Notes: a model not told the origin generated them from the sequence alone. A stretch of 64,000 nt of DNA from Candidatus Lustribacter sp. (GCA_965277805.1 OZ255842.1:448001-512000); one strand, 5' to 3'; numbered from the stretch's first letter, positions 25,941 through 57,578 are shown. Numbers and translations are program-made.

Positions 25941-26891
25941 ATGCAACATCTTTCGCGTTCACGGGCACTCGGCGTCATCGCAGCGGGCGCGGCACTGCTT
26001 CCTCGCATGGCGACGGCGCAGAGCGCGCTCGTGCCGTTGCGCGTCGGCAGCGTCGCGGCGGACACGTACGCCGGCGGTTACTACGCGCTCGATCTGGGGC
26101 TCTTCGAGAAAGCCGGCCTCGGCGTCGAGATCACGCCGTTTGCCAACGGTGCGGCGATGGCCGCCGCGGCGGCCGGCGGCAGCATCGACGTCGGCATCGG
26201 CGACGCCACCGAACTCGCGAACGGCATCAGCCGCGGCATTCCGTTCGTGCTGCTCGCCGGCGGCGGCGTCTACGCGACCGCAGCCCCGACCACGACGCTG
26301 TGCATCAGCAAAACGTCGACCATCGCGAAAGCGTCGGACCTCGAGGGGCAGACCGTGGCAGTGGTTTCGCTCGTGTCGCTGATGAGCGCGGCCGTGAAGA
26401 GCTGGCTCACGCAAAACGGCGCCGACATCACAAAGATCAAGTTCGTCGAGATGCCGTTCCCGCAAATGCCGGGCGCGCTGTCGCGCGGTGCGCTGCAAGC
26501 GGCGACGTTGAGCGAGCCGATCATGAGCGACGCGCTCGCCGCCGACGCCAAAATCTTCGCCAAGCCGTACGACGCGATCGCGAAACAGTTCTACATCAGC
26601 GACTGGTTCACCACACGCGATTGGCTCGCGAAGAACCTCGACGTTGCAAAACGCTTCGTCGGCGCGATCTACGACGCCGCGCGCTGGGCCAACGCCCACC
26701 ACGACGATTCCGCCGCCATTCTCTCGAAATACACGAAGATCGACGTCGACCGCATCAAACGCATGAACCGCTCCGGCTATGCCACCGACCTCAAGGCGTC
26801 CCTGGTGCAACCCGTGCTGGACACGGCCTTCAAATACAAAGCCCTCGCAACCGCCACCCAAGCCACCGCAATGATCGCCAAAGGCTTCTAA
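25941..26891 (+). CDS. SsuA/NMT1-like ABC substrate-binding protein
   Basis: 'GLFEKAGLGVEI', 'GGSIDVG', 'DLEGQTVAV', 'KFVEMPF'. Confidence 0.88.
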   Translation: MQHLSRSRALGVIAAGAALLPRMATAQSALVPLRVGSVAADTYAGGYYALDLGLFEKAGLGVEITPFANGAAMAAAAAGGSIDVGIGDATELANGISRGIPFVLLAGGGVYATAAPTTTLCISKTSTIAKASDLEGQTVAVVSLVSLMSAAVKSWLTQNGADITKIKFVEMPFPQMPGALSRGALQAATLSEPIMSDALAADAKIFAKPYDAIAKQFYISDWFTTRDWLAKNLDVAKRFVGAIYDAARWANAHHDDSAAILSKYTKIDVDRIKRMNRSGYATDLKASLVQPVLDTAFKYKALATATQATAMIAKGF

Positions 26892-26896
26892 AGGAG

Positions 26897-26919
26897 AGCC
26901 CGCTAGCGCGGGCTTTTTT
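26897..26919 (+). terminator. Intrinsic terminator
   Basis: agcccgc-tagc-gcgggct plus T6, just after the stop codon. Confidence 0.85.
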
Positions 26920-26921
26920 AA

Positions 26922-27127
26922 TGTCATCCCGAGTGGAGCGCCGATAGGCGCGTAATCGAGGGACGCGCCACGACCTTGGCGATCGAGTGCGAGCGCGAAG
27001 GCGCGAGCAGTGGTGTAAAAAAAGCGGAGAAGTAACCACTGCTCCCGCCTTCGCGGTCGCACTCCAAGTGTAGAGATTGTCTCGGTCCCTCGACGACGCG
27101 CCTGACGGCGCTTTGCTCGGGATGACA
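26922..27127. repeat. Full-length palindromic REP/MITE-like element (copy A)
   Basis: 43-bp terminal IR (26922-26964 / 27085-27127, 36 of 43 match) with a nested 30-bp IR (26985-27014 / 27035-27064, 28 of 30). Confidence 0.88.
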
Positions 27128-27147
27128 AGTTAGGGGAACGTCAGCTT

Positions 27148-27174
27148 AAAAAAAGCCCGCGTATCACGCGGGCT
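27148..27174 (-). terminator. Intrinsic terminator for rpiA-hyi
   Basis: agcccgcgt-gat-acgcgggct plus T7 on the minus strand. Confidence 0.85.
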
Positions 27175-27197
27175 CTCCCTTTTTGGGAGCATGATGG

Positions 27198-27977
27198 CTA
27201 TTTGAGATACGGCGCCGTCCAGCTGAGGCCGGCTTCTGTTGTTGCGGCGGGTTTGTATTCGAGGCCGACGTAGTTGGGGTAGTTGTCGGCGTCGAGTTGG
27301 GCTAGGGCGGCGGTGATGTTGAGGTCGCCGGTGTTGGGTTCGTGGCGGTCGGGGCAGCCGGCGATTTGCACGTGCGCGAAGCGGCCGCGCAGTTCGTGCG
27401 CGCGCTCGATTGCGCGGCCTTCGGTGTGGAAGACGTGGTAGAAGTCGAATTGCAGCGCGACGTTGGGCTGCGCGACGCGGTCGAGAATCCCGATCGCTTG
27501 CGTGGTCGACTGCAAGACGTAGGTCGGATTTTCTTTTGCGTTCAGCGGCTCGATCGTCAGCGTGATGCCCTCGGCCGCGCAGCGCGGTGCGGTAGCGGTG
27601 AGGTTCGCAACCAGCGTGTCTTCGTGTGCGCAGAGCGCAACGCCGTTGACGCGCAGGCCCGACATCGCATGCAGCCGCGGACAACCCGTGGTTTTCGCGT
27701 AGGTTAGCGCGAGTTCGAGACCGGCCGCGAAGCGCGTTTCGTCACCCGGGCGCGCAGCGAATCCGCGTTCGCCCTTCGACATATCACCGGCCGGAAGGTT
27801 GATGAGCACGAGTGCGAGATCGTGCGCCCGCAGCTCCGAGGCGATCTCGTCCGCCGTGAGTTCGTACGGCCACAGAATTTCGACGGCCCGGAACCCGCAG
27901 GCCGCCGCCGCGGCAAAGCGTTCGCGCAGCGGCCGCTCCGTGAAGAGCCAGCTCAGGTTCGCCGACAGTTTGGGCAC
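27198..27977 (-). CDS. hyi: Hydroxypyruvate isomerase family protein
   Basis: 'KLSANLSWLF', 'GFRAVE', 'IEPLN', 'QFDFYH', 'HVQIA', 'RHEP', 'VGLEY'. Confidence 0.9.
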   Translation of the reverse strand: MPKLSANLSWLFTERPLRERFAAAAACGFRAVEILWPYELTADEIASELRAHDLALVLINLPAGDMSKGERGFAARPGDETRFAAGLELALTYAKTTGCPRLHAMSGLRVNGVALCAHEDTLVANLTATAPRCAAEGITLTIEPLNAKENPTYVLQSTTQAIGILDRVAQPNVALQFDFYHVFHTEGRAIERAHELRGRFAHVQIAGCPDRHEPNTGDLNITAALAQLDADNYPNYVGLEYKPAATTEAGLSWTAPYLK

Positions 27978-28666
27978 TAGGCTTTGGTCAATTCGCGTAC
28001 GCCCTCGTCGGCCGTGCAGAGCACCGCGTCGGCTAGGTCGAGGAAGATGCCCACGTCGAGCACGCCATGGATCGCTTGCACCGCTGCGGCGAGCGCGCGC
28101 GGATCGGCGATCGTGCCGAAGGCGCAGTCGAGGATGGCGTTGCCGTTGTCGGTCCGGTACGGCTCCCCGTCCCGGACACGCTCGGTTGCTTTGGCGGTCG
28201 GGAAGCGGGCCGCGATTTCGCGCTCGACCCACGCGAGCGTGAACGGCACCACCTCGACCGGGGTCGGGAAGCGGCCCAGGTGCTCGACCACCTTGGAGTC
28301 GTCGACGATCACGACGAAGCGCCGGGCGGCGATGGCGATCGCCTTCTCGCGAAAAAGCGCGCCCCCGCCGCCTTTGGTGAGGGCCCAATCGGGAGCGACC
28401 TCGTCGGCGCCGTCGATTGCCACGTCGATGTCCCGGCTCATGAACGGGATCACCGGCACCCCGAACTCGCGGCAGAGCTGCTCGGTCGCCGCCGAGGTCA
28501 CGACGGCTTCGAGTTTGTCACCCCCCGCGATCCGCTCGCCGGTCCGTTTGACGGCCCAGTAGGCGGTGGTCCCGGTCCCGAGTCCCACGCACATGCCGGC
28601 CCCGACGTACCGGTCCACGGCGGCATAGCCGACGAGTCGCTTGGCCGCTTCCTTAGGATCGCTCAA
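27977..28666 (-). CDS. rpiA: Ribose-5-phosphate isomerase A
   Basis: 'VGLGTGTT', 'IDGADEV', 'KGGGGALFREK', 'TDNGN'. Confidence 0.96.
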   Translation of the reverse strand: MSDPKEAAKRLVGYAAVDRYVGAGMCVGLGTGTTAYWAVKRTGERIAGGDKLEAVVTSAATEQLCREFGVPVIPFMSRDIDVAIDGADEVAPDWALTKGGGGALFREKAIAIAARRFVVIVDDSKVVEHLGRFPTPVEVVPFTLAWVEREIAARFPTAKATERVRDGEPYRTDNGNAILDCAFGTIADPRALAAAVQAIHGVLDVGIFLDLADAVLCTADEGVRELTKA

Positions 28667-28714
28667 CGGGGTCCTCCGTACGGGTGCTTGTGAACAAAAA
28701 TCGAATGACCGCGG

Positions 28715-28743
28715 TTGACGCTTCGGCGAGGCCGTGTTAGTCT
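28715..28743 (+). promoter_or_regulatory. Sigma70-type promoter of the ilv-leu operon
   Basis: TTGACG-17nt-TAGTCT with TG extension. Confidence 0.75.
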
Positions 28744-28752
28744 CGGTGCAAC

Positions 28753-28830
28753 GTGTTAAATCCCGTTCGCCTCGGTCTCGTCGTTATCGTTCTTGTCGCC
28801 CTTACGGGTCGGCGAGGCATTGCTGCGTAG
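28753..28830 (+). CDS. ilv/leu attenuator leader peptide (25 aa)
   Basis: [25 protein letters not shown]; 12 of 24 post-start codons are Leu/Val/Ile. Confidence 0.85.
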
Positions 28831-28850
28831 AACGAATCAACGAACGCTGC

Positions 28851-28883
28851 AAGCCCCTCGCCGGAGTCGACGAGGGGTTTTTT
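28851..28883 (+). terminator. Attenuator terminator
   Basis: aagcccctcg...cgaggggttttttt; 5' arm cctcgccg can alternatively pair with cggcgagg at 28810-28817. Confidence 0.85.
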
Positions 28884-28907
28884 GTTGCCAACCGTTCCGG
28901 AGGATCC

Positions 28908-29921
28908 ATGGAAGCCATCTATGACCGCGATATCGACCGCGGCGCAATCGAAGGAAAGACGATCGCCATCATCGGCTACGGGAGCCAGGGCCGCGCGCAC
29001 GCGCTGAACCTGCGCGACTCGGGCTGCAACGTTGTCGTCGGTCTGCGCGGCGATTCGAAGTCGCGGCCCGAGGCTCAGCGCGAAGGGCTCGAGGTAGCGG
29101 AAGTCGCCGACGCCGTCAAACGCGCCGACGTCACGATGATCCTGATCCCCGATGAAGAGCAGCCGGCAACGTACATGCGCGACATCAAGGACAATCTCAA
29201 GCCGGGATCGGCGCTGGCGTTTGCGCACGGCTTCGGCATTCACTTCGGTACGATCGTCCCGCCGGCCAACGTCGACGTGTGGATGTGCGCACCGAAGGGG
29301 CCGGGCCGCATGGTCCGCCACGAATACGAAATGGGCCGCGGCGTGCCGTGCCTGATCGCGATCCACCAAGACTACTCCGGCAAGGCCAAAGCGATCGCGG
29401 CCGCATACGCGAGCGGCATCGGCGGCGGACGCGCGGGCATTCTCGAGACGAACTTCCGCGAAGAAACCGAAACCGATCTGTTCGGCGAACAAGCCGTGCT
29501 CTGCGGCGGCACGACGGCGCTCGTCACGGCCGGATTCGAAACGCTGGTGGACGCCGGCTACGCGCCCGAGATGGCGTACTTCGAATGCCTGCACGAGCTC
29601 AAGCTCATCGTCGACTTGATGTACGAAAAAGGCATCGAGGGCATGCGCGAGAGCATCAGCAACACCGCCAAGTACGGCGACTACACGCGCGGTCCGCGCA
29701 TCGTGAACGACGAGACCAAAGCGACGATGAAGACAATGCTCAAAGAAATCCAGTCCGGCGATTTCGCGAAGCAGTGGGTCGCGGAACACGCCGCCGGCAA
29801 GCCGAACTTCAAGAACTACAAGGCAGCTGCGGAAAAACACCCGATCGAAGCGGTCGGCGTCAAACTCCGCCAGCTCATGCCGTGGTTCCAAACCAACAAG
29901 GCTCCGGCAATAGCGAAATGA
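28908..29921 (+). CDS. ilvC: Ketol-acid reductoisomerase
   Basis: '[19 protein letters not shown]', 'APKGPG', '[16 protein letters not shown]'. Confidence 0.97.
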
Positions 29922-31612
29922 TTCCCGCAATTACGCCGCGGCCGCGTACCGGCGGTGACGCGGTGCTCGAAGCGCTCGAACGTGAAGGGGTCGATGTCAT
30001 TTTCGGCTACCCCGGCGGCACGATCATGCCGTTCTACGATGCGCTCTACGGACACCCCATGCGTCACATCCTCGTCCGGCACGAAGCGGGCGCGGCGTTT
30101 GCAGCGGGTGGGTATGCGCGAACCAGCGGACGCGTCGGCGTCTGCTGCGCAACCTCGGGTCCGGGGGCGACGAACCTCGTCACCGGCCTCGTCGATGCGA
30201 TGATGGATTCGATCCCGGTCGTGGCGATCACGGCTAACGTGCGCATGGCGCTGATGGGCACCGATGGTTTCCAAGAAGCCGACGTCTGCGCGATCACGCA
30301 GTGCGCGACCAAAGCCTCGATCCTGATCACGGATCCCGGTCAGCTCTACACCAAAGTGCGTGAAGCGTTTGCGCTCGCGCGCAGCGGCCGGCCGGGCCCC
30401 GTGCTGGTCGACATCCCGACCGACGTGCTGAAAGCACCGTACGTGCCCGAACAGCATCCGCCGCGCAAGGTCAACGACGTGAAACCGGTCGCAACGCCGG
30501 AATCAATCAAGGCCGCAGCCGACGCGATTCGCAATTCGCACCGTCCGGTGGCGATTGCCGGCGGCGGCGCGCGCGAACCGCGCGCGGTCAAAGCGTTCCG
30601 CGAACTCTGCGCGCTATTGGGCCTGCCGCACACGACGACGATCTGCGGTCTCGGCGCATCGGATCCGAACGACGTGCACGGGCTCGGCATGCTCGGCATG
30701 CACGGCACGAAAGCCTCGAACCTCACCGTGCACACGGCCGACGTCGTGCTGGCGTTCGGCATGCGGTTCGACGATCGCGTCACCGGCCGTCCCGATCGCT
30801 TCGCCAAGGGCGCGACGGTCGTGCACAACGACATCGACGTTTCCGAATTCAACAAGATCATCCCGACCGACGTGATGCTGCACGGCGATTCGGCCGACAC
30901 GATCAAGGCGCTGATCGCCGAGCTGAAAACCGGGCACGTGCCGCGCTTCGACGATTGGGCCGTGCAGGCCAAAGCGCTGGGCGGTCCGCTGCCGAGCGAT
31001 GAGTCCAAAGACGGTCATCTGTCGGCGACCGACTTCCTCGATCAGCTCTTCGCCTCGATGCCGCCCAAGTCGATCGTCTCGACCGACGTCGGCCAGCATC
31101 AGATGTGGAGCGCGCAGCGTTTCAAACCGAACACGCCGCGCGACTTCTGCACCTCGGCGGGGCTCGGCTCGATGGGCTTCGGCTTTCCGGCCGCAATCGG
31201 CGCGTGTTTCGCCAATCCCGGCCGGCCCGTGTTTGCGATCTGCGGCGACGGCGGCTTCCAGATGACGATGCCCGAACTCGCGACCGTGAAACGCTACCAG
31301 GTGCCGGTGAAGATCGTGCTGATCGACAACCGCAATCTCGGCATGGTGCGTCAATGGCAAGAGCTGTTCTACGACGAGCGCTACTCGGCGACGAACCTCT
31401 CCGACAACCCGGACTTCGGCACGATCGCCAGCGCCTACGACATCGAAGCGTTCCGCATCAGCGGACCCGAGGATGCGCCGTCGGTGCTCGCGGCGTTCCT
31501 CGCCTACAGCGGCCCGGCATTGCTCCACGTTTCGTGCTACCCCGACGAACTCGTCTGGCCGATGATTCCGGCCGGCGGCGTCGTCGAAGATCTGATGGAA
31601 TCGCGGACCTGA
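29918..31612 (+). CDS. ilvB: Acetolactate synthase large subunit
   Basis: 'FGYPGG', 'RHEAGA', 'TSGPGATN', 'RFDDRVTG', 'DVGQHQMW', 'GDGGFQM', 'LGMVRQWQ'. Confidence 0.96.
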
Positions 31613-31613
31613 C

Positions 31614-31829
31614 GTGACCTACGACCTCGTGGTTGGTGATCCGCGCACCGTAGCGCGGGTCATCAACATGGCTCACCGTTTCCAATGCCGCGCGTCGCGC
31701 GTCGACTCGACCTCGAGCGACACCGTGACGACGGCGCACTTCGAATTCGCCGGCGATGCGAAACAGCTCGACCGGTTGCGCGCGCAAATCGATCGCATCG
31801 TCCAATTCGAGAAAATATTTGTATCGTGA
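31614..31829 (+). CDS. Short ACT-like acetolactate synthase regulatory subunit
   Basis: 71 aa between ilvB and leuC; 'VARVINMAHR', 'QLDRLRAQIDRI'. Confidence 0.7.
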   Translation: MTYDLVVGDPRTVARVINMAHRFQCRASRVDSTSSDTVTTAHFEFAGDAKQLDRLRAQIDRIVQFEKIFVS

Positions 31830-34760: not shown

Positions 34761-34761
34761 G

Positions 34762-35250: not shown

Positions 35251-35259
35251 AGCTCTAAT

Positions 35260-40264: not shown

Positions 40265-40266
40265 CT

Positions 40267-42631: not shown

Positions 42632-42728
42632 CGCAACAAATCTAGCCCAACGTACGCTCCCTTGGGCCGACGTTTCGCTCGCTTAATCGGCGGGCAACAC
42701 GTAGAAAATCCTATTGTTGGGGGGAGCT

Positions 42729-43316: not shown

Positions 43317-43319
43317 GAC

Positions 43320-43400: not shown

Positions 43401-43417
43401 GATTCGCTAGCGCCGAT

Positions 43418-43430
43418 AATTGAAGCGCAC
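43418..43430 (+). promoter_or_regulatory. Putative Ada box
   Basis: AAT-tgaagc-GCAC resembles AAT-N6-GCAA; 57-45 nt upstream of the ada ATG. Confidence 0.65.
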
Positions 43431-43474
43431 GATTCGGGTGGCGTCGAAGTAGCTGCTGCGAGCATCATGGGTTC

Positions 43475-45180: not shown

Positions 45181-45214
45181 AGGCGCCCCAGCCGCTCGGG
45201 TCCAAGGGCCGCTT

Positions 45215-46165: not shown

Positions 46166-46177
46166 GAGAACCTCGCC

Positions 46178-47386: not shown

Positions 47387-47390
47387 CCTG

Positions 47391-48341: not shown

Positions 48342-49548
48342 CGCGGATCAACCGCTGCGCCTGGGCGTAGCCGGGCTTGGCGTGGCGAGCACACTGTTTT
48401 TGCCCGGCGTCGAATCGTATCCGAACGCGCGCATCGTGGCCGCCGCCGACCGCCGTCCGGCGGCGCTCGCCGCGTTTGCGGAACGCTATCGCGCCAACAC
48501 CTACGATTCGGTTGAGGCGCTGTGCAGCGATCCGGACGTCGACGTCGTCTGGATCGCGACGCCGAACCAGTTCCACTGCGAACACACGATCCTCGCGGCG
48601 GAACACAAGAAGCACGTCGTGTGCACGAAGCCGATGGCGCTGGGCGTCGATGAAGCGCGGCGCATGTGCGAAGCGGCGGAGCGCAACGGCGTGCAGCTGC
48701 TGTGCGGTCAGACGTGGAGCATGAGCCCCGACGTGCAAGCGATGTGGCGCGTCGTGACGTCGGGCGAACTCGGCGGCTTGATCGCGATCAACACGTGGCT
48801 CTCCACCGACTGGCTGCTCAAGCCGCGCATGCCCGAAGAACTCGATGAAGCGCTTGGCGGCGGCGTCGTCTACCGCCACGCACCGCACCTGATCGACACG
48901 GTGCGTTTGCTCGGTGGCGGGCGCCTGCGCAGCGTGCGCGGTTCGGTCGGCCGCTGGATGCCCGAACGCCCGTGTCCCGGAAATTTCTCCGCCTACCTGG
49001 AGTTCGAAGACGGCACACCGGGGACGATCGCCTACAACGGATACGGCTACTTCGACACCTCCGAACTCACGTGGGGCATCGGTAATCGGCTCTATACCGA
49101 CGACGAGCGCATCGGCGTACGCCGCGCGCTCAGGGCAGGCACGTTCGACAACGACGGTGCGAAAGAAGAGATGCGCTTCGGCGCCGCCCGCACCGTCGCG
49201 GCCAACACCGGGGGTACGCCGACGGTTGCGGGAACGCGCGCGCACATCGGCTGGTTCGGCATCACGGTTGCGAGTTGCGAGCGCGGTGACGTGCGCCAAT
49301 CACCCAACGGCCTCTACGTCTACGACGCGAACGGCCGCCGCGAAATCCCCGTCACCGGCGGCCGCGGCACCGGCATGCTCGAGATGCGCGAAATGTACGA
49401 GTGCCTCCACAACAACGTCCCCATCACCCACGACGGCCGCTGGGCCCTAGCCACCCTCGAAGTAGGCATGGCCATCCTAGCCTCAGGCGAGCAACGAAAA
49501 GAAATACTTCTCGAGCACCAGTGCGAGATCGCGCACGCGGTGAAATGA
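48328..49548 (+). CDS. Gfo/Idh/MocA oxidoreductase (cis-dihydrodiol dehydrogenase-like)
   Basis: 'LGVAGLG', 'IATPNQFH', 'KPMA', 'GGGVVYRHAPHLID', 'YNGYGYFD', 'HDGRWALATLEV'. Confidence 0.88.
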   Translation: MSPPSADQPLRLGVAGLGVASTLFLPGVESYPNARIVAAADRRPAALAAFAERYRANTYDSVEALCSDPDVDVVWIATPNQFHCEHTILAAEHKKHVVCTKPMALGVDEARRMCEAAERNGVQLLCGQTWSMSPDVQAMWRVVTSGELGGLIAINTWLSTDWLLKPRMPEELDEALGGGVVYRHAPHLIDTVRLLGGGRLRSVRGSVGRWMPERPCPGNFSAYLEFEDGTPGTIAYNGYGYFDTSELTWGIGNRLYTDDERIGVRRALRAGTFDNDGAKEEMRFGAARTVAANTGGTPTVAGTRAHIGWFGITVASCERGDVRQSPNGLYVYDANGRREIPVTGGRGTGMLEMREMYECLHNNVPITHDGRWALATLEVGMAILASGEQRKEILLEHQCEIAHAVK

Positions 49549-49565
49549 ACGAAGAAAAAAAATGG

Positions 49566-49695
49566 TGTCATTCCGAGCGAAGTGCCGAAGGCACGTAGAC
49601 GAGGAACGAGCCACGATTCTCGCGGTCGCACGCTAAATGCTGAGACTATCTCGGATTCCTCGTCAGCGTCCGTTCGGCACTTGCTCGGAATGACA
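49566..49695. repeat. Full-length palindromic REP/MITE-like element (copy B)
   Basis: tgtcattccgagc...gctcggaatgaca, imperfect IR of about 40 bp; internal cgcggtcgcac...tctcgg shared with copy A. Confidence 0.88.
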
Positions 49696-50035
49696 TGGCA
49701 CACGCAATCCACCAAATGAGAAGCAACTGGAGAGGCACGCGTAGCCAGATCACCCACGCTGGTGCGACGGATGCGAAGTGGGCGGCTTCGATGGCCATGT
49801 AGATGTTGGCCGGCCACACGGCGATGAGGAGCGCGATGAGACCGATGGCGGCGGCCTTGCGAGTGGCGGGGATGAGGAGGCCGATGCCGCCGGCGAGTTC
49901 GGCGACGCCGCTGATTGCAACGAGCAGATCCGCATGGCCGAGTTGGGGTGGGATGATCGAGGTGAAGATTTCCGAATGTGTGATGTGCGCGGTGCCCGAG
50001 GTCAGGAACAGCGCTGCCGGCGCGCCGATGCGCAA
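49646..50035 (-). CDS. DoxX-like membrane protein (start uncertain)
   Basis: 'SGVAELAGGIGLL', 'VWPANIYMA', 'LRVPLQ'; C-terminus reads into repeat B. Confidence 0.8.
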   Translation of the reverse strand: MRIGAPAALFLTSGTAHITHSEIFTSIIPPQLGHADLLVAISGVAELAGGIGLLIPATRKAAAIGLIALLIAVWPANIYMAIEAAHFASVAPAWVIWLRVPLQLLLIWWIACAMSFRASAERTLTRNPR

Positions 50036-50064
50036 GAGCCAGCGCAGGATCCGGGCGCCGGGGC

Positions 50065-50772
50065 TTAGTCGAAGAGCGATGGTGTTGCTATCGCGGTATC
50101 CGCAACCGGCTTGATCAGGGCTTCGTCGTCGAAGCGCGCGTTGCCGACGCGCGGTGCGACCGGGTTTGCGGTCCACCATTCCGGCGGGCTCGGCGTCAGC
50201 AACGCAAAGAGCGACTCCGAGTCGCGCTCGCCTTCTGCGAGCCATTCACGCGCGCGCTCGACGTCGAGAACGGCCGGCATGCGCGAATGGATCGTCGCCA
50301 TGAACGCGTTGGCCGGTTGCGTGACGATCGTCGCGCTGGTGAGCGTTTCATCGCCCGCCGGCGAGGTCCACACGTCCCACAGGCCGGCAAACACGAACGG
50401 CTCGTCGTCCGCGCGGTGAATCCACAGCGGCGTCTTGCCGCCGTCGGGGTCGGTACGCCATTCATAGAAGCCGTCGGCGAAGATCGCACAGCGGCGTGTG
50501 TGAAACGCGTCGCGATAGGTCGGCGCTTTGGCGATCGTCTCGATGCGCGCGTTGAAGGTCGAGAGCTTTACCGCCGACGGGTGCTCGGCGTGCGGCGGCA
50601 CGAGTCCCCAGCGCACCTCTTCGACGCTGCGGTCAGCATCGTTGAGGACGGCGACGATCGGCTGCGTCGGCGCGATGTTGAAGCGGCTACGCAGCGAGCG
50701 CGCGACGCTCTTGCTGCCGAGCGTCTTTGCGAGCGGCCAGGGCGGTTTGCGCAGTGTGAAACGGGCGCACAT
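50065..50772 (-). CDS. SOS response-associated peptidase (SRAP/YedK/HMCES family)
   Basis: N-terminal MC-x-RF, 'FNIAPTQ', 'WGLVP', 'NARIET', 'GFYEW', 'IHSRMP'. Confidence 0.94.
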   Translation of the reverse strand: MCARFTLRKPPWPLAKTLGSKSVARSLRSRFNIAPTQPIVAVLNDADRSVEEVRWGLVPPHAEHPSAVKLSTFNARIETIAKAPTYRDAFHTRRCAIFADGFYEWRTDPDGGKTPLWIHRADDEPFVFAGLWDVWTSPAGDETLTSATIVTQPANAFMATIHSRMPAVLDVERAREWLAEGERDSESLFALLTPSPPEWWTANPVAPRVGNARFDDEALIKPVADTAIATPSLFD

Positions 50773-51339
50773 TCACTTCGCGCCCTGCCACCGCCGGAAG
50801 AGGTCGTTGTCGATGTTGAATTGATCGAGCACCTTGCCGACCGTGTGGTTCACGACGTCTTCGATCGTCTTCGGCCGGGAGTACGTGCCCGGAACCGGCG
50901 GCAAGATGATCGCGCCGGCTTCGGCCGCACGCGTGAGGTTGCGCAGGTGGTTGACGTGCAGCGGCGTCTCACGCACCACCAGCACCAGCGTGCGGCGTTC
51001 CTTGAGGCAAACGTCGGCGGCGCGTACGAGCAGGTTGTCGTTGAGCGAGTAGGCGATCGCCGAGGCCGAGCGCATCGAGCACGGCACCACGATCATGCCG
51101 TCGGTCTTGAACGATCCCGACGAAATCGACGCAGCTAAGTTGCCGCTGTCGTGCAGCACGTCGGCGTAGGCTTCCAATTCGGGCGGCTTGACGTCGGTCT
51201 CGAGTTCGACCGTTTGTTTGGCCTGCGGTGAGATCACGAGGTGGACCTCGATGCCGCCGATCGCGCGCAGTGCCTTCAACGTTTGGATCGCATAGATGCT
51301 GCCGCTGGCACCCGACACACCGACGATGATTCTGCGCAT
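50773..51339 (-). CDS. ubiX: Flavin prenyltransferase
   Basis: 'VGVSGASG', 'ISSGSF', 'PCSM', 'RAADVCLKERR', 'RETPL'. Confidence 0.95.
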   Translation of the reverse strand: MRRIIVGVSGASGSIYAIQTLKALRAIGGIEVHLVISPQAKQTVELETDVKPPELEAYADVLHDSGNLAASISSGSFKTDGMIVVPCSMRSASAIAYSLNDNLLVRAADVCLKERRTLVLVVRETPLHVNHLRNLTRAAEAGAIILPPVPGTYSRPKTIEDVVNHTVGKVLDQFNIDNDLFRRWQGAK

Positions 51340-51394
51340 TACCGCACCGTTTCCGGGGCATGGACGCCGAACCTCCGGGGGGAAGGATCGGGCC

Positions 51395-52204
51395 ATGAAC
51401 GGCAACGGTTCCGGCGCCAAGACGGTCGCCGTCCTGGGGCTCGGCGAAGCCGGCTCGCTGCTGGCGCGCGACCTGGTCCGCGGCGGCGCCATCGTGCGCG
51501 GCTGGGATCCCGATTTTCACGGCGACCTGAGCGAGATTCCGCGCGCTGCAAGCGCCGCTGCCGCCGTCAGCGGCGCCGACGTCGTCATCTCGGTGAACTG
51601 GGCAACCGTCGCCGCCGATGTGGCGCGCGACGCGGTACCGCACCTGCATCGCGGGATGATCTACGCCGATCACAACACCTCGAGTCCGAAACTCAAGCAA
51701 GAACTCGCGGCGATCGTTGCGCCGAGCGGCGCAGCGTTCATCGACGTTGCGATGATGGCGCCGGTGCCGCCGCTCGGGATGCGCGTGGGGATGTTCATGG
51801 CCGGCGACGGCGCGGAAGAACTGGCCGCGTTCTACCGGCACTTCGGCACGCCGGTCGGATTCATCGGCACGAAGCCCGGCGAAGCGAACGCGCGCAAGTT
51901 GTGCCGTTCGGTGTTCTTCAAGGGCATGTCGTCGTCGATCTACGAAGCGCTCGAAGCGGCGCGCGCTGTCGGCGTTGAGGACTGGCTTCGTTCGGACATC
52001 ATCCGTACGCTGGTTGAAGCGGATGCATCGACGCTCGATCGCATCGTCGACGGCACGGAGAAGCACGCGGTCCGCCGCGCGCACGAGATGCGCGACGCCG
52101 AGGCGATGCTGCGCGAGCTGGGCACGCCGCTGACCATGGTGACGGCAACGGCCGAGTCGCTCGAACGGATCGCCGGCGAGAAGAAGGTCCCCGCGCACCG
52201 GTGA
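51395..52204 (+). CDS. NAD(P)-dependent oxidoreductase (DUF1932-type)
   Basis: 'LGLGEAG', 'KLCRSVFFKG', 'HAVRRAHEM'. Confidence 0.85.
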   Translation: MNGNGSGAKTVAVLGLGEAGSLLARDLVRGGAIVRGWDPDFHGDLSEIPRAASAAAAVSGADVVISVNWATVAADVARDAVPHLHRGMIYADHNTSSPKLKQELAAIVAPSGAAFIDVAMMAPVPPLGMRVGMFMAGDGAEELAAFYRHFGTPVGFIGTKPGEANARKLCRSVFFKGMSSSIYEALEAARAVGVEDWLRSDIIRTLVEADASTLDRIVDGTEKHAVRRAHEMRDAEAMLRELGTPLTMVTATAESLERIAGEKKVPAHR

Positions 52205-52995
52205 TGGGTGCACCGGCGATCGTCCTGCGGGACGTCGGCAAGGTTTTCGTGCGCGACGACGGCACGGCCGTCGCGGTGCTCGAGCACGTCAGCTTCGAAA
52301 TCGCCGCCGGCAGTTTCGTGTGCCTCGTCGGCCGCAGCGGCAGCGGCAAATCGACGATCCTCAACATGATCGCCGGATTGCTCGAACCCACGAGCGGAAC
52401 GATCGCCTTCGCCGACGGCGTCACCAAACGGCCGCGCCTCGACATCGGCTATCTGACGCAGAAGGAAACGCTGCTGCCATGGCGCGACCTGCTGCACAAC
52501 GTCGCGATGCCGCTCGAAGTGCGCGGCGTCGATAAAGCGCAACGCGAAGCGCGCGCCCGCGAGCTCATTCGCCGCGTCGGACTCACCGACGCGGAAAAAC
52601 GCTATCCGCGCGAGCTCTCGGGCGGCATGTCGCGACGCGCCTCGCTCGCGCGCATGCTGGCAAGCGACCCGGCCACGCTCTTGCTGGACGAGCCCTTCGG
52701 TGCGCTCGACGCGCAGCTGCGCGGCGACCTGCAAGCCGAGCTGCTGCAGCTCTGGCAGGGCAGCGGCAAGACGATCGTGTTCGTGACGCACGACATCGAC
52801 GAAGCGCTGCTGCTGGCCGATCGCGTGATCGCGCTGCAGTCCGGCGGCCGCATCGCGGTCGACGTCGAGCTGCCGCCGGCGCGGCCGCGCAGTCAGCGCG
52901 AAGTCCGCTTCGGCCCCGAGTTCATCGCGCTGCACGAGCGATTGCTCGACGCGCTCACCACCGACCCCGGCGCGCGCAGCGCCGCCGCCGTATGA
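52201..52995 (+). CDS. ABC transporter ATP-binding protein (SsuB/TauB-like)
   Basis: GRSGSGKST, LSGGM, LLDEPFGALD, VTHD. Confidence 0.95.
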   Translation: MMGAPAIVLRDVGKVFVRDDGTAVAVLEHVSFEIAAGSFVCLVGRSGSGKSTILNMIAGLLEPTSGTIAFADGVTKRPRLDIGYLTQKETLLPWRDLLHNVAMPLEVRGVDKAQREARARELIRRVGLTDAEKRYPRELSGGMSRRASLARMLASDPATLLLDEPFGALDAQLRGDLQAELLQLWQGSGKTIVFVTHDIDEALLLADRVIALQSGGRIAVDVELPPARPRSQREVRFGPEFIALHERLLDALTTDPGARSAAAV

Positions 52996-53819
52996 ACGCG
53001 ACGCTCTCGGCGGTCGAATCGCGCCGCAACGTGCGCGCGCGCCACAACCTGCGCATCCTTCTCGCGCGCACCGCACTTTTCATCGCCGTCGTCGGATTGT
53101 GGCAGCTCGGCTCGAATCTCAACCTGATCGATGCCACCGTCGTGCCGAGCCCGCTCGCCATCGGCGCGAGCCTGTGGAAGATTACCCTCAACGGTCAGCT
53201 CGTCTTTCACTCGTGGATCACGATCCAGGAAACGATCGCGGGCTTCTTGATCGGCGCGATCGGCGGCATCGTCCTGGGCTTCGCGATCGGGCGTTATCCC
53301 GCGCTCGCCGAAGTGCTCGACCCGTTCATCCTGGCGATCTACAGCGTGCCCAAGGTCGCGCTCGCGCCCCTGTTCGTCGTCTGGTTCGGCATCGGCATCT
53401 TCATGAAGATCGTGCTGGCGGCGGTGACGGTGCTGTTCATCGTGTTCTTCAACACCCTGGCCGGCGTGCGCAACGTCGATCGCGACCTGGTTGACGCCGT
53501 CTGGCTCATGGGCGCCAAACCGCGCGACGTACTCTTCAAAGTGCTGGTGCCCTCGGCGATGAGCTGGGCCCTCACGGGCGTGCGCATCTCGATTCCCTAC
53601 GCGCTGATCGGTGCGATCATCGGCGAGCTGATCGCCTCGAACCGCGGGATCGGCTACCTGATCTCATCGGCCGCTTCGGCTTACGATACGGCGGGCGTCT
53701 TCGCCGCGCTCATCGTATTAACGGTGCTGGCGATGCTACTCAACGCCGTCGTCGACGAGATCGACCGCCGCCTTTCCAAGTGGAAAGTCGACGCTTCCGT
53801 GAGCATACGAGGAACGTAA
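52992..53819 (+). CDS. ABC transporter permease (SsuC/TauC-like)
   Basis: 'PKVALAPLFVVWFGIG', EAA-like 'DAVWLMGA', 'GIGYLI'. Confidence 0.94.
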   Translation: MNATLSAVESRRNVRARHNLRILLARTALFIAVVGLWQLGSNLNLIDATVVPSPLAIGASLWKITLNGQLVFHSWITIQETIAGFLIGAIGGIVLGFAIGRYPALAEVLDPFILAIYSVPKVALAPLFVVWFGIGIFMKIVLAAVTVLFIVFFNTLAGVRNVDRDLVDAVWLMGAKPRDVLFKVLVPSAMSWALTGVRISIPYALIGAIIGELIASNRGIGYLISSAASAYDTAGVFAALIVLTVLAMLLNAVVDEIDRRLSKWKVDASVSIRGT

Positions 53820-53822
53820 CCC

Positions 53823-54860
53823 ATGCAAGTCACGCGCAAACACGCCCTTACCGCGCTGGGCGGCGCCGCTACGGCGGTCGCGTTCCCGGCGATCGTGCGC
53901 TCGGCAACGCAGTCGCTGCAGGTCGGGCAAATCGGCAATTCGGTCGCCTTCTTCCCGGTCTTCGCGGCCGACAAGCTGGGCTATTACAAGGATGCCGGCC
54001 TCGACGTCACGGCGACTTCGTTCTCCACCGGGACGCTCGTCGGCACGGCGGTCACCTCCAACAGCATCGATATCGGCAACTCGGTGATCACCGACGTCTT
54101 CGCGCTGCTCAAGGCAAACCGGCCGGTGAAGCTGATCGGCTCGCTCTGCGACGCATACTACATCGACATCGTCGCTTCGAATCAGTTCCTCGCTGCCACC
54201 AAGCTGACGCGCGCGAGCAGCCTTGCCGACAAAATCAACGGGCTCAAGGGCAAGCGCGTGGGCATCACCGGACCGGGTTCGGGAACGCAAGCGCTGGTCG
54301 ATTATATCTTCCGCCTGCAAGGGCTCGACTCGACGCGCGACGTCGAACTCGTAAACGTCGGCGCCGATCAAAGTGCCGTGCTGCAAACGATGAAAACGGG
54401 ACGCATCGATGCGGTGTCCTTCGCCTGGCCGATGACGATGATCGCCGAGGCGAACAACATCGGCAAAGGGTTCATCGTGCCGGCGGCCGGCGACGTGCCC
54501 TCGATGCGCGATCAAGTGCAAGGCGTGATCTACGCGAAGCCCGACGTCATCGCGAAACGGCAGGATGCCGTCGTCGCATACGTGCACGCGATCGCGCGCG
54601 CCGAAACCTATATCCACCAAAACACGAACCAGGCGCGCGGCTTGCTCAAGCAGTACGACGGCGCGCTAAGCGATCCCGCGATCGAGGCGTTGCTGGCGGC
54701 CTATGTTCCGGCGCTGCCGCATCAAGCCGATATTGCGGCCAACAGCTACGAGAAAGCCCTGCAATTCCACCGCTTGACCGGCTTTGCCGGCCCGGCGGGC
54801 AACACGTTCCCCGAGGTCGTCGACTCGACGACCATGCTGAAAGCGACCCGCCGCTCATGA
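53823..54860 (+). CDS. SsuA/NMT1-like substrate-binding protein
   Basis: 'GYYKDAGLDV', 'LKGKRVGITGPGS', 'GRIDA'. Confidence 0.9.
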   Translation: MQVTRKHALTALGGAATAVAFPAIVRSATQSLQVGQIGNSVAFFPVFAADKLGYYKDAGLDVTATSFSTGTLVGTAVTSNSIDIGNSVITDVFALLKANRPVKLIGSLCDAYYIDIVASNQFLAATKLTRASSLADKINGLKGKRVGITGPGSGTQALVDYIFRLQGLDSTRDVELVNVGADQSAVLQTMKTGRIDAVSFAWPMTMIAEANNIGKGFIVPAAGDVPSMRDQVQGVIYAKPDVIAKRQDAVVAYVHAIARAETYIHQNTNQARGLLKQYDGALSDPAIEALLAAYVPALPHQADIAANSYEKALQFHRLTGFAGPAGNTFPEVVDSTTMLKATRRS

Positions 54861-55756
54861 AACTTTGCCGCTTTGGAGAAAACCGCTACGGGGTCGTCCG
54901 CGACGGCCAGGTCTACGACGTCACCGAACGCGTTGCGAAGGCGGTCGTTGCCGCACCGCTGCAGCGCGGCGACGCCGCGATCGTGAACCTCGAGGCGATC
55001 GTGCGCCTCGTTGAGGGCGCGAAGCTCGGCGAGCCCGTGGGCGCCGCCGACAACACGAAATTCTTAGCGCCGGTGATCAATCCGACGAAGATCGTCTGCG
55101 CGCCGGTGAACTACGAAGCGCACATTGCCGAATCGGAAGCCGATCCCGGCATTACGTTCAACCACGCGGTCGCGCGCATCGATAAAGCCGGCCTGTTTCT
55201 CAAGGCATCGAGCGCGCTCATCGGTCCGAGCGAGGGCGTGGCCGTGCGCTTCTCCGACCGCCGAACCGATCACGAGATCGAACTCGGCGTGGTCATCGGC
55301 CGCGAGTGCCGCAACGTTTCGGAGAAAGACGCGCTCGACGTCGTGGCCGGCTACGCGATCGCGCTCGACATGACCGTGCGCGGCACGGAAGACCGCAGCT
55401 TCCGCAAGTCGATCGATTCGTACGCCGTCCTCGGTCCGTGGCTCGTGACGCCGGACGAACTGCCCGAACCCGACAGCGTCGACTTTTCGCTCAAGGTCAA
55501 CGGCGAAGTGCGTCAACAGTCCAACACGCGCCACCTGATCTTCAAGACGCGCAAGCTGATCGCGTGGGCGTCGAACTGGTACACACTCTATCCGGGCGAC
55601 ATCATCATGACGGGAACGCCCGAAGGCGTCAGCCCGGTCGCTCCGGGCGACGTGATGGATTGCGAGATGCAGTATATCGGCAAGATGCGCGTGGACGTGC
55701 GCGCCGCGGCGGTGTACACGAGCGACAGCCACGCATCGGAAGTGCTGGTGGGATGA
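54857..55756 (+). CDS. Fumarylacetoacetate hydrolase family protein
   Basis: 'KIVCAPVNY', 'DHEIELGVVIG', 'LGPWLVT', 'LYPGDIIMTGTPEGV'. Confidence 0.93.
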   Translation: MKLCRFGENRYGVVRDGQVYDVTERVAKAVVAAPLQRGDAAIVNLEAIVRLVEGAKLGEPVGAADNTKFLAPVINPTKIVCAPVNYEAHIAESEADPGITFNHAVARIDKAGLFLKASSALIGPSEGVAVRFSDRRTDHEIELGVVIGRECRNVSEKDALDVVAGYAIALDMTVRGTEDRSFRKSIDSYAVLGPWLVTPDELPEPDSVDFSLKVNGEVRQQSNTRHLIFKTRKLIAWASNWYTLYPGDIIMTGTPEGVSPVAPGDVMDCEMQYIGKMRVDVRAAAVYTSDSHASEVLVG

Positions 55757-56958
55757 CCGCCGACCGCGTCATCGTCGCCGGCGGCGGCCCCGTCGGGCTG
55801 ATGACGGCGCTCGGGCTCGCGCATGCCGGCGTGCCGGTGCTGCTCGTCGAGCAAGAGCCGGCGCTCACCGTCGATTTGCGCGCCGGCTCGTACCATCCGC
55901 CGACGCTCGAAGCGATGGCGCCCTACGGCATCACCGATCGCATGCTCGAGCGCGGCATCAAGGTGCGTCACTGGCAGATCCGCGATCGCAAGAATCCGGC
56001 CTGGGTAGCCAACTGGGATCTCGGCCTGATCGCCGATCTTACGCCCTATCCGTACCGCCTGCACCTCGAGCAGCACCGGCTTACGCCGATCATTCTCGAT
56101 TTCTTGCGCCGCGAGCCGTTGGCGGAAGTGCAGTTCAACGCGCGCTTCGTCGACGTCGAGCAAACGGCTGACGGCGTGCGCGTGAGCTACGAACACAACG
56201 GCGAACCGGCGGTTGCCGAGGGTGCGTATCTGATCGGCGCCGACGGCGGCCGCAGCAACGTGCGCAAGGCGATCGCGATGCCCTTCGAGGGTTTCACTTG
56301 GGACGAGCGCTTCATGGTGATCAGCACCTCGTTCGATTTTCAAACGCGCGGCTACGCCAAGAACGTCTACCTTGCCGACCCCGATCAGTGGGCAACGCTC
56401 TTCCAAATGCCCGGCGACGTCACGCCGTATTGGCGCATCGTGATCCCGACCGACATCAACACCCCCGAGGACGTCATCGCGGCACCAGACGCGGTCGAGG
56501 CGTGGCTGCAAAACTTCGAACCGCGCGATGAGCCCTACGAGGTGCTTTACAACAGCTTTTATCGCGTGCACCAGCGCGTGGCGCAGAACTTCCGTAGCGG
56601 TCGCGTGCTCTTAGCCGGCGATGCCGCGCATCTGAACAACCCGCTCGGCGCGTTCGGGCTCAACAGCGGCATCCAAGACGCAGCCAACCTGATCCCGAAA
56701 CTCGCCGCCGTCTGGCACGGCACGGCGCCGGATACGCTGCTCGACGTCTACGATCGCCAGCGGCACACCGCCACGGTCGAGCACGTCCAGGCGAACTCGA
56801 TCGCCAACAAACGCACGATGGAAGAGCGCGACCCCGCCTTACGCAAGGCCCACTTCGAAGAACTCGTCCACACGGCCGAAACCCCCGAACTCGCGCGCCG
56901 CTTCCTCATCAACTCCTCAATGATCGCCGCCGTCCAACGCGCCGCCGAAGTCGCCTAG
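55753..56958 (+). CDS. FAD-dependent monooxygenase (MhpA/PHBH-like)
   Basis: 'AGGGPVG', 'GADGGRS', 'GRVLLAGDAAH', 'GLNSGIQDA'. Confidence 0.92.
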   Translation: MTADRVIVAGGGPVGLMTALGLAHAGVPVLLVEQEPALTVDLRAGSYHPPTLEAMAPYGITDRMLERGIKVRHWQIRDRKNPAWVANWDLGLIADLTPYPYRLHLEQHRLTPIILDFLRREPLAEVQFNARFVDVEQTADGVRVSYEHNGEPAVAEGAYLIGADGGRSNVRKAIAMPFEGFTWDERFMVISTSFDFQTRGYAKNVYLADPDQWATLFQMPGDVTPYWRIVIPTDINTPEDVIAAPDAVEAWLQNFEPRDEPYEVLYNSFYRVHQRVAQNFRSGRVLLAGDAAHLNNPLGAFGLNSGIQDAANLIPKLAAVWHGTAPDTLLDVYDRQRHTATVEHVQANSIANKRTMEERDPALRKAHFEELVHTAETPELARRFLINSSMIAAVQRAAEVA

Positions 56959-56962
56959 CTCA

Positions 56963-56975
56963 GCTCGGGATGACA
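56963..56975. repeat. Terminal remnant of the TGACA repeat family
   Basis: gctcgggatgaca, 13 of 13 identical to the right end of copy A, in a 20-nt convergent intergenic gap. Confidence 0.7.
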
Positions 56976-56978
56976 GAC

Positions 56979-57578
56979 CTACGGGTCGGTGGTTAGTTTG
57001 TAGTCGTTGAATGTGGCGTGGGCGGTGACGTGATAGCCGGGCACTTGAATGTCGGCGTCTTCGCTTTGCGGGACCGGGTAGCCGTTGATCTCGATCGGGT
57101 TGACGTCGACTTGAATCGCGCCGCCGTTCACGTACGACCATTTGACCTGACGTAATCCGTCCTGATCGATTTCGGCGTGCACGCCGCGCACGTGGCCGTC
57201 GGTCCGGTCCTTCATTTCGAGGATCGAACGCGTGCCGTTCTGCATCAAGCTGACGACATCGTAGGTCGCCGGCCACGTGACCGGTTCCAACGGATCCATC
57301 TTGATATTTTCGAAGCCCTTACCGAACCACGGCACGTTGCGAAAATGGACCGAGTAGAGATTCGGCCGTTCGTATTTGCCGGTGCCTTCCAGGTGGACGC
57401 CGATGTACGGAAAGGTCCGTAACTTGAAGTCGACGTGAAGATCAAAGGTATAGGAACGCACCGCGGACGTGCGGGCGCCGGTCATCGCAAAGACGCGGGC
57501 AGCCTCGTCGGGTGGTCCCTCTGCTAAGAGGACAACCGACGCCAGAAGCGCGGCAATCCCCCGGAAGACGGGGCCCAT
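56979..57578 (-). CDS. Hypothetical secreted beta-rich protein
   Basis: Signal peptide, alternating beta-strand pattern, C-terminal 'ATFNDYK'. Confidence 0.72.
   Translation of the reverse strand: MGPVFRGIAALLASVVLLAEGPPDEAARVFAMTGARTSAVRSYTFDLHVDFKLRTFPYIGVHLEGTGKYERPNLYSVHFRNVPWFGKGFENIKMDPLEPVTWPATYDVVSLMQNGTRSILEMKDRTDGHVRGVHAEIDQDGLRQVKWSYVNGGAIQVDVNPIEINGYPVPQSEDADIQVPGYHVTAHATFNDYKLTTDP

Follow-up and report, generated by a model that had tools for sequence, protein, structure and literature searches.

Gene 3′ ends facing a palindromic repeat are depleted of synonymous G in a Candidatus Lustribacter genome and may form rut-like RNA

Genes of a Candidatus Lustribacter genome that are transcribed into a small palindromic repeat show, toward their stop codons, an altered choice of synonymous codons that leaves the messenger RNA rich in A and C. 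We describe this phenomenon in a stretch of 64,000 nucleotides (nt) (GCA_965277805.1 OZ255842.1:448001-512000), hereafter the window, and in the genome to which it belongs, a single contig of 5,533,281 bp with 64.3% GC in which the window occupies positions 448001–512000. The host, an uncultured bacterium represented by assembled genomes only, belongs to a Lustribacter-like genus of the lineage Candidatus Eremiobacterota, and its genome is labeled G000 where genomes are compared. The composition shift itself is directly observed: it is synonymous, it affects 3′ ends only, in the sense of the mRNA, and it is coupled to the repeat both within and between genomes. G is avoided and, to a milder extent, so is U. 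Our preferred but still tentative reading, to which we give somewhat less than an even chance, is that these tails are selected, structure-free segments of RNA resembling Rho utilization (rut) sites, placed upstream of a hairpin that resembles the repetitive extragenic palindromic (REP) elements of other bacteria.

We called 5,069 genes with our own codon log-likelihood caller, trained on the same genome, and scored the tail of each gene by C−G, the count of C minus the count of G on the coding strand over its last 120 nt. Repeats were defined by the end motifs GTCATYCCGAG and CTCGGRATGAC, a detection that overlooks degenerate copies, and classes of tails were contrasted by the Mann–Whitney test. 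At convergent junctions, the mean C−G was 16.4 for tails with a repeat (n = 140) and 4.9 for tails without one (n = 1250; p = 7.4e-27). The corresponding values for tandem tails were 9.6 (n = 49) and 2.1 (n = 2904; p = 9e-7). Intergenic gaps of the same size gave the same contrast, with a C−G of 21.9 with (n = 26) and 6.9 without the repeat (n = 14) for gaps of 100–150 nt, and of 20.0 (n = 26) and 7.5 (n = 14) for gaps of 150–250 nt; thus, gap size does not explain the association. A preliminary description of the window, in which stretches had been chosen by eye, had cautioned that this choice might introduce bias, but the genome-wide contrast and the gap control show that picking stretches by eye did not create the effect. 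When family members were instead defined by de novo clustering, convergent tails averaged 15.8 (n = 154) against 4.8 for the others (n = 1236), and tandem family tails averaged 9.0. Strong skew, a C−G of at least 15, was found in 60% of convergent family tails, compared with 13% of other convergent tails and 6% of tandem tails. An equal frequency at repeat-free junctions, named at the outset as an outcome that would speak against the idea, is therefore not what this genome displays. Both tails reached at least 12 at 46% of 68 repeat junctions and at 8% of 519 other junctions. Family tails made up 61% of the 80 tails with a C−G of at least 25, though the family accounts for 5.1% of all tails; the other 31 (~39%) had no family member, and several of these remaining extreme junctions, nominally repeat-free, hold degenerate remnants of the repeat.

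The shift resides in synonymous sites. From gene body to tail, the fourfold-degenerate sites changed from 0.43 to 0.21 in G, from 0.46 to 0.625 in C, from 0.05 to 0.11 in A and from 0.06 to 0.054 in T. The share of A among twofold codons ending in a purine rose from 0.43 to 0.70, that of C among codons ending in a pyrimidine rose from 0.75 to 0.84, and rare A-ending codons such as CTA increased several-fold. Amino-acid composition of the tails almost did not change, so that protein sequence, which the preliminary description had named as an explanation that would refute its idea, does not account for a skew seen at fourfold and twofold synonymous sites. The frequency of G at third positions (G3) descended through 0.35, 0.30, 0.24, 0.20 and 0.17 from −300 nt to the stop codon, near which C3 reached 0.62 and A3 0.19, and codon positions 1 and 2 barely moved. 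The dependence of third-position skew on distance from the repeat, proposed earlier as a check, is thus a decay over ~250 nt. Given that the changes are synonymous, they represent neither an amino-acid effect nor translational optimization.

The shift also has a direction. At tandem junctions, the 3′ end of the upstream gene was skewed (+12.5 and +6.9 on the coding strand), and the 5′ end of the downstream gene was near baseline. Skew measured outward from the repeat edge was 0.138 in 3′ flanks (95% confidence interval (CI) 0.119–0.157; n = 216) compared with 0.031 in 5′ flanks (95% CI 0.004–0.060; n = 78). Because 5′ ends beside repeats are nearly unskewed, we assign the skew to the 3′ ends of mRNAs whose transcription runs into the repeat. 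We also folded 150-nt tails in silico, with tails recoded according to body codon usage as a control (n = 27). The predicted minimum free energy (MFE) was −36.5 kcal/mol for natural and −50.1 kcal/mol for recoded tails (p = 3e-8), a folding weaker by 27%. The number of bases of the 5′ repeat arm predicted to pair with the tail was the same in both, 21.0 and 20.9 of ~90 (p = 0.85, n = 27). Weak folding together with unchanged arm pairing indicates that the tails are structure-free, but not for the sake of protecting the folding of the hairpin.

We then compared genomes of the same genus, which share ancestry and are therefore non-independent samples. A relative of ~78% identity, G002, of which 1.2 Mb was covered, has a median protein identity of 81% to G000 for the full set of 532 reciprocal best hits (group means 76–86%); in a very close relative, G003, the flanking proteins are 88–100% identical to those of G000. 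The association recurred in G002, where C−G was 17.8 with (n = 30) and 4.0 without a repeat (n = 250), even though the G002 repeat shares just the end motif with that of G000. Among 439 orthologue pairs of G000 and G002, 33 had a repeat in one genome only, and their means were 16.4 with and 6.5 without it; the copy with the repeat was the higher in 24 pairs, the lower in 8 and tied in 1 (Wilcoxon p = 1.2e-4). Pairs with a repeat in neither genome averaged 3.5 and 3.4. Discordant tails at the same junction numbered five only (16.0 vs 11.4). A further panel comprised genus orthologues of ten repeat-flanked G000 genes, three from the window and seven of nine random picks (eight of the nine were searched; one had no orthologue in the five genomes searched and another had just one). 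With G003 and one locus holding repeat remnants left out of the averages, C−G was 15.8 with (n = 6) and 5.75 without a repeat (n = 28; p = 0.0035). Comparison with orthologues lacking the repeat, another check that had been proposed, thus shows that skew tracks the repeat, and since repeat-free orthologues are mostly unskewed, the skew is not an old and stable property of the genes. The gene at 26007–26891 of the window exemplifies this. The protein sequence of its tail is conserved in six same-genus orthologues; G3 was 0.20, 0.25 and 0.07 in the three genomes in which a repeat lies behind the gene, which ends there in TAA, and 0.42, 0.42, 0.40 and 0.30 in the four genomes in which no repeat, and a different neighbor gene, follows.

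The element is not confined to this lineage. A survey of an exact 24-nt unit of the repeat, which by its nature captures exact and hence young-looking copies only, returned at least 108 stretches among the matches listed, and 80 loci were analyzed. Hosts among those matches included Verrucomicrobiota, Planctomycetota, Acidobacteriota, Chloroflexota, Alphaproteobacteria, Bacteroidota, Spirochaetota, lineages of the candidate phyla radiation and several genera of Eremiobacterota. The unit occurs in at least 10 phyla, often as inverted pairs 50–120 nt apart, and one locus carries five tandem copies ~150 nt apart. The family looks like a miniature inverted-repeat transposable element (MITE) that has spread horizontally very widely and recently. 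Among the matches listed, outward skew in the outer flanks of the unit was 0.153 in G000 (n = 55), 0.145 in G003 (n = 15), 0.070 in other Eremiobacterota (n = 37) and 0.012 in other phyla (n = 34). When only flanks resembling gene 3′ ends were kept among these matches, the tail C−G was 17.4 in G003 (n = 8), against 2.9 for the other Eremiobacterota (n = 20) and 1.3 for the remaining phyla (n = 11). As the flanks are unskewed in other hosts, the skew is not built into the element or its insertion sites. As far as these small samples of exact copies indicate, the skew is specific to one genus-level lineage.

Within the G000 genome, the two end motifs occur as 113 and 85 exact copies (198). Twenty-six complete pairs, with ends 40–330 nt apart, have the form of small elements with terminal inverted repeats and no open reading frame (ORF). 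Clustering of 2,419 intergenic regions yielded a family of 181 regions that far outnumbers any other; the second largest has 14. Members are long (~200 nt, a single long hairpin), short (a ~35-nt unit) or reduced to solo 11-mers. Of 177 repeat loci, 27 lie in coding sequences (CDS), and the other 150 lie at 81 convergent, 29 and 30 tandem, and 10 divergent junctions; convergent junctions are 829 of all 5,068. The median distance between the gene boundary and the start of the repeat is 12.5 nt, and the first-transcribed (5′) arm of the repeat is G-rich (G 0.34, C 0.27). Sites occupied in one and empty in the other of G003 and G000 differ over the whole spacer. In line with this, at junctions whose flanking proteins are 88–99% identical between the two genomes, the entire spacer has been replaced, beyond the presence or absence of the repeat, indicating very fast turnover. 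Repeat junctions were synteny breakpoints no more often than other convergent junctions, the same neighbor being retained at 17% of the former and 21% of the latter (Fisher p = 0.78).

Searches for relatives and partners of the element gave the following. Rfam returned no match over the gathering score for 26700–27400, weak microRNA and leader matches reflecting a generic hairpin only. No Y1 (RAYT) transposase was detected as a PF01797 match in the genome (95% complete), and a control search matched 6 of 14 named genomes. An autonomous partner was not found among seven motif pairs 1–3.8 kb apart, which enclose ordinary-looking ORFs, unsearched against protein families. The flanks of the elements at junctions 1 and 2 of the window, read from the sequence, contain no clear direct repeat. 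A short C-run (CCCCC..TT before GTCAT) precedes many elements and a matching G-run follows them, for example at 3572605 and 5363919, so the true inverted ends may exceed the 11-mer. A second hairpin family (GGCCGAAGGCC-type) occupies 14 intergenic loci, and the tails flanking it are intermediate (mean C−G 7.1 over 16 tails).

The window contains seven convergent junctions, three with and four without a repeat (Table 1). All nine C and G counts made by hand in the preliminary description were reproduced exactly, and all six of its flagged stretches have a C−G of at least 17 in 60 nt. Such values occur in 0.16% of 80,127 coding-strand CDS windows of 60 nt across the genome and over the last 60 nt of 62 of the 5,069 genes (1.2%). 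Left and right tails scored 23/27, 7/not scored (right gene shorter than 450 nt) and 28/25 at the repeat junctions, against −2/6, 4/7, −7/6 and 4/1 at the repeat-free ones. The skewed stretches are 120–450 nt long, and five of the six genes that flank the repeat junctions carry Pfam domains of an ordinary kind. Skew had been claimed for the ends at all three junctions, and it is present at each, but at junction 2 it lies 70–270 nt before the stop codon and the last 120 nt amount to +7. A palindrome had been assigned to each junction as well; junctions 1 and 2 have one, but junction 3 has a solo 11-mer in a 20-nt gap. The wording "C-rich and G-poor" was correct though incomplete, since A also exceeds T, that is, the tails are A/C-rich and G/T-poor.

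Table 1 Features at the three repeat-bearing convergent junctions of the window (positions counted from its first nucleotide)
Feature	Position	Strand	Basis
C/A-rich, G/T-poor 3′ tail of NMT1/THI5-like substrate-binding protein gene (26007–26891)	26530..26891	+	Pfam NMT1
Intrinsic-terminator-like hairpin and T-run directly after the stop	26893..26919	+	Sequence; separate 12-bp hairpin in fold
Palindromic repeat, ~206 nt, ends GTCATCCCGAG / CTCGGGATGAC	26922..27127	.	Arms 26922–26964 and 27085–27127; motifs at 26923 and 27116
Mirror-image terminator-like hairpin and T-run of the minus-strand gene	27148..27176	-	Sequence
C-rich, G-poor 3′ tail of xylose-isomerase-like TIM-barrel gene (27198–27977)	27198..27640	-	Pfam AP_endonuc_2
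C-rich, G-poor stretch near the end of GFO/IDH/MocA oxidoreductase gene (48382–49548)	49280..49520	+	Pfam
Shorter palindromic member (~130 nt) of the same repeat family	49566..49695	.	Motifs at 49567 and 49684
C-rich, G-poor part of DoxX-like gene (49646–50035) and end of the next gene	49720..50130	-	Pfam DoxX_2
C-rich, G-poor 3′ tail of FAD-binding monooxygenase-type gene (55753–56958)	56620..56958	+	Pfam FAD_binding_3
Solo 11-mer CTCGGGATGAC, a single repeat end, in the 20-nt gap between two stops	56964..56974	.	Motif position, sequence
C-rich, G-poor 3′ tail of 199-aa gene (56979–57578) without Pfam match	56979..57100	-	Composition

At junction 1, sliding C−G in the NMT1/THI5-like gene is positive from ~26530 and reaches its maximum of +15 at 26830–26889; the last 120 nt score +23 with a G3 of 0.20. 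On the opposing side, plus-strand C−G falls to −20 at 27280–27339 and stays negative until ~27640, and the last 120 nt of that gene score +27 on its coding strand. The repeat between them has 112 BLAST matches in the genome, and the region 26700–27140 is predicted to fold with the repeat as one long hairpin (MFE −209.6 kcal/mol, z = −9.3). Two near-identical, mirror-image hairpin and T-run terminators stand one on each side of this repeat, and because this canonical pair sits around it, junction 1 bears both types of terminator. NMT1/THI5-like proteins form a very large paralogous family, with at least 77 scored matches in G000 and in each of seven other same-genus genomes. At junction 2, C−G in the oxidoreductase gene rises to +17 per 80 nt at 49400–49479, the last 120 nt scoring just +7, and plus-strand C−G lies between −9 and −20 per 80 nt throughout 49720–50130. 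The DoxX-like ORF on the minus strand stops inside the repeat by our own gene call (stop 49646–49648), its final ~16 codons lying within the repeat arm (49646–49695). ORFs also end within repeats at ~2128816, 4674048 and 5263290 (genome coordinates), and the TCA of GTCATCCCGAG constitutes a TGA stop codon for a minus-strand gene; repeats can thus provide C-termini and stop codons. At junction 3, C−G climbs to +21 per 80 nt at 56860–56939 in the monooxygenase-type gene (last 120 nt, +28), and plus-strand C−G is −20 per 80 nt at 56980–57059 in the opposing gene (coding-strand last 120 nt, +25). Convergent genes of the genome have their own preference for stop codons, irrespective of the repeat: TGA ends 21–22% of them compared with 51% of tandem genes, TAG ends 41–46% and TAA 32–38%. 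Convergent gene ends separated by 20 nt or less number 1,015, and abutting or overlapping ends are common.

How might a repeat and the codons before it be related? We propose that genes transcribed into the REP/MITE-like repeat would carry, within their last ~200 nt, a selected stretch of structure-free mRNA, formed by synonymous recoding that would strip G, and less so U, in favor of C and A. This stretch would serve as a rut-like entry site for Rho amid a highly structured transcriptome of 64% GC. The repeat hairpin, at a median of ~12 nt past the stop codon, would then pause RNA polymerase, block 3′ exonucleases, or both, such that one repeat and two tails could constitute a compact two-way terminator at a convergent junction. 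A Rho entry site and its pause are generally pictured as unstructured RNA, rich in A and C and poor in G, with a hairpin after it. The genome encodes an intact rho, a 383-aa ORF with Rho_N, Rho_RNA_bind and ATP-synt_ab domains and the one PF07497 match above the cut-off. Intrinsic terminators are rare: our own crude scan found a canonical hairpin and T-run at 141 of 4,343 gene ends, and the skew of those without a repeat was, by this crude finder, slight (5.3, n = 66, against 3.5, n = 1232; p = 0.04). Passages of a study of Rho binding describe a "bubble" of C over G as the mark of Rho entry (PMC12350095), passages of another place REPs near Rho-dependent 3′ ends of Escherichia coli, which they shield from exonucleases (PMC6061677), and the abstract of a third presents REP325 as a partly Rho-dependent terminator and stabilizer (bioRxiv 10.64898/2026.03.23.713779). 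The rut-like reading thus draws on the fit of an unstructured A/C-rich tail plus hairpin to Rho entry and pausing, and on the link between REPs and Rho-dependent ends. We infer, rather than observe, that selection and not mutation recoded the tails, that Rho is their putative reader, and in which order the arrival of the repeat and the recoding took place. A further and rather doubtful possibility is that the mobile repeat and the codon choice of its host co-evolve: the repeat would arrive, ~200 nt of synonymous sites would be rewritten to be A/C-rich, and the product would be a portable, two-way, factor-dependent terminator.

Several observations weigh against this role for Rho. The C-rich zone forms the last ~200 nt of conserved, translated ORFs, so ribosomes should hinder the loading of Rho. 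Passages of PMC6061677 locate the rut signals of E. coli downstream of protective stem-loops and REPs, and passages of PMC13613805 report enrichment of rut signals downstream of transcript 3′ ends in E. coli and Bacillus subtilis. The RNA downstream of the repeat is instead G-rich and C-poor here, with a sense skew of −0.09 to −0.10 for 300 nt. No C>G zone marks the other transcription-unit ends in the genome on either side of the stop codon, and Rho would therefore need a signal only where a repeat sits. The share of C among non-G fourfold codons, which we derived from the frequencies above, is flat (0.81 in bodies, 0.79 in tails), indicating avoidance of G and U and not a positive preference for C. 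YC dinucleotides were not enriched relative to synonymous resampling (z = −4.3), a resampling without gene-body control. At 16 tails with a repeat in G003 but not in G000, skew was equal (16.4 vs 15.9), so the comparison of close relatives does not order the events. Finally, third-position divergence between G000 and G003 was slightly higher in tails (0.135–0.173) than in bodies (0.112–0.125), which signifies neither strong site-by-site constraint nor hypermutation.

The relation could also be the reverse, with the repeat a passenger that inserts or survives preferentially at C-rich, G-poor ends, possibly Rho sites, made by the host. Repeats turn over faster than skew, as the 16 equally skewed tails (16.4 vs 15.9) and the wholesale replacement of spacers attest; 31 of the 80 tails with a C−G of at least 25 (~39%) stand without a family member; and repeats are concentrated at convergent junctions (81 of 150, compared with 829 of 5,068), where insertion harms least. 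Yet skew itself turns over within the genus: repeat-free orthologues of ~76–93% identity are mostly unskewed (6.5 vs 16.4, n = 33; 5.75 vs 15.8). The repeat unit resides in other hosts without skewed flanks, which argues against a built-in target preference, and several of the supposedly repeat-free skewed junctions hold degenerate remnants. A passenger would also leave the origin of the skew unexplained, and we regard this account as unlikely. We think it improbable, too, that the tails are a transcription-coupled mutational footprint, whereby polymerases would stall or queue at the hairpin, or at some protein that occupies it, one strand upstream of the repeat would be exposed or repaired, and the coding strand would over time be depleted of G. 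The effect does follow the direction of transcription and weaken away from the repeat, tails diverge slightly more than bodies at third positions, C↔G is the commonest third-position difference between G000 and G003, so that G→C is not rare, and restriction to one lineage could reflect a host repair enzyme. However, mutation associated with transcription is known to change C→T on the non-template strand; the coding strand would then lose C, whereas here it gains C. The lost G became mostly C, and U was lost too, a combination that no single type of lesion predicts. Nor is there hypermutation (0.15 in tails vs 0.12 in bodies), and the outcome makes functional sense as a whole, namely A/C-rich RNA with folding weakened by 27%. 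The preliminary description had seen correctly that tails beside repeats are enriched in C and depleted of G in the sense of the mRNA, but its suggestion that repeats might leave a strand-asymmetric mutational footprint fares poorly in view of the contrast between 5′ and 3′ flanks (0.031 vs 0.138), the unskewed flanks in other hosts and the conversion of lost G mostly to C.

More improbable again is a defense against antisense transcription, in which the G/U-rich RNA of a polymerase reading through beyond the repeat would form R-loops or G-quadruplexes (G4s) that stop the polymerase and shield the gene it has entered. The GC-skewed terminators of eukaryotes offer an analogy; the mirror symmetry would fit, as would the sense skew of −0.09 to −0.10 for 300 nt past the repeat and the stronger skew at convergent (15.8) than at tandem (9.0) junctions. 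Tandem junctions, which have no convergent partner, are skewed as well, though, and G-clusters are what starts R-loops and G4s. C-runs on the coding strand, their complement, were depleted in tails relative to synonymous resampling (CCC z = −6.1, CCCC z = −3.2; resampling without gene-body control), so that selection for G-clusters is not supported. The account to which we assign the lowest probability holds that G is removed to insulate folding, such that the first arm does not mispair with the tail or that ribosomes terminating ~12 nt away are unhindered. Longer elements do go with stronger skew (~20–22 for gaps of 100–250 nt, 7.5–14 for gaps of 20–60 nt), the repeat does begin close to the gene boundary (median 12.5 nt), and plain intrinsic terminators are little skewed (5.3 vs 3.5). 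The direct test was negative, as arm–tail pairing did not differ when natural tails were replaced by recoded ones (21.0 vs 20.9 of ~90, p = 0.85, n = 27), and this model is accordingly not supported. Moreover, the 5′ arm is G-rich (G 0.34, C 0.27), and C-richness of the tail should therefore favor pairing between the two rather than prevent it.

Biases in codon choice along a gene are commonly attributed to translation or to the accessibility of start codons. In this genome, hundreds of genes have lost half of their third-position G over the last ~200 nt, and only where a mobile repeat follows. If selection for Rho entry is the cause, terminator signals would be writable inside the ORFs of compact, GC-rich genomes, a REP-like repeat and its flanks would act as one unit, and terminators would become predictable in a phylum of which hardly any member has been cultured and in which canonical terminators are few. 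If repeat and codon choice co-evolve, a transposable element would shape the local codon usage of its neighbors, and the terminator signal would lie mostly within coding sequence. Were the cause mutational instead, it would be a previously unrecognized process that acts on one strand where transcription meets a roadblock. In both cases, the tails call for caution in dN/dS and codon-bias analyses near gene ends, and they provide a cheap sequence marker of transcription-unit boundaries in these genomes.

Each component of this system has been described before, be it REP-like repeats, Rho or C>G zones; what appears undescribed is a strong and local synonymous recoding of gene tails that is tied to a mobile repeat, mirrored across it and found in one lineage. 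We found no prior description of recoded REP-flanked tails, or of the repeat motif, in a literature that was covered mostly without subscription journals or supplements; matches to the motif were unrelated, primer-like strings. The element is like a MITE in being short and non-autonomous, with terminal inverted repeats and many copies, often behind genes. It differs from MITEs that have an autonomous element in that no such partner was found here. The Correia elements of Neisseria are MITEs with regulatory side effects, and we know of no MITE with an effect on the codon usage of neighboring genes. Like a Rho-dependent terminator, a junction combines at least 80 nt of C-rich, G-poor, weakly structured RNA with a hairpin within 150 nt, in a genome with rho; unlike such a terminator, the candidate rut is translated, the signal is missing at other unit ends and C is not favored over the other non-G bases. 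The closest counterparts are the REPs and bacterial interspersed mosaic elements (BIMEs) of E. coli, which are likewise abundant palindromic extragenic repeats, mostly behind genes and between convergent genes. Two studies describe them at Rho-dependent 3′ ends, blocking 3′ exonucleases and differing in location between close strains (PMC6061677; bioRxiv 10.64898/2026.03.23.713779). The C>G zone lies downstream of the REP in E. coli, as passages of PMC6061677 have it, but upstream of the repeat, inside the ORF and in synonymous sites, in the present genome. In contrast to REP/REPIN–RAYT systems, no Y1 transposase was found in this genome, and unlike REPs, the element has inverted ends of the TG...CA type and a 24-nt unit common to many phyla. 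There is also a likeness to the bidirectional tandem Rut peaks seen by H-SELEX in E. coli and B. subtilis, paired sites close together on opposite strands, whose role their authors describe as undetermined (PMC12350095). Those peaks have, in the same study, no strict localization, whereas the pairs described here lie at gene 3′ ends on either side of a repeat and point toward one another; the two may be related.

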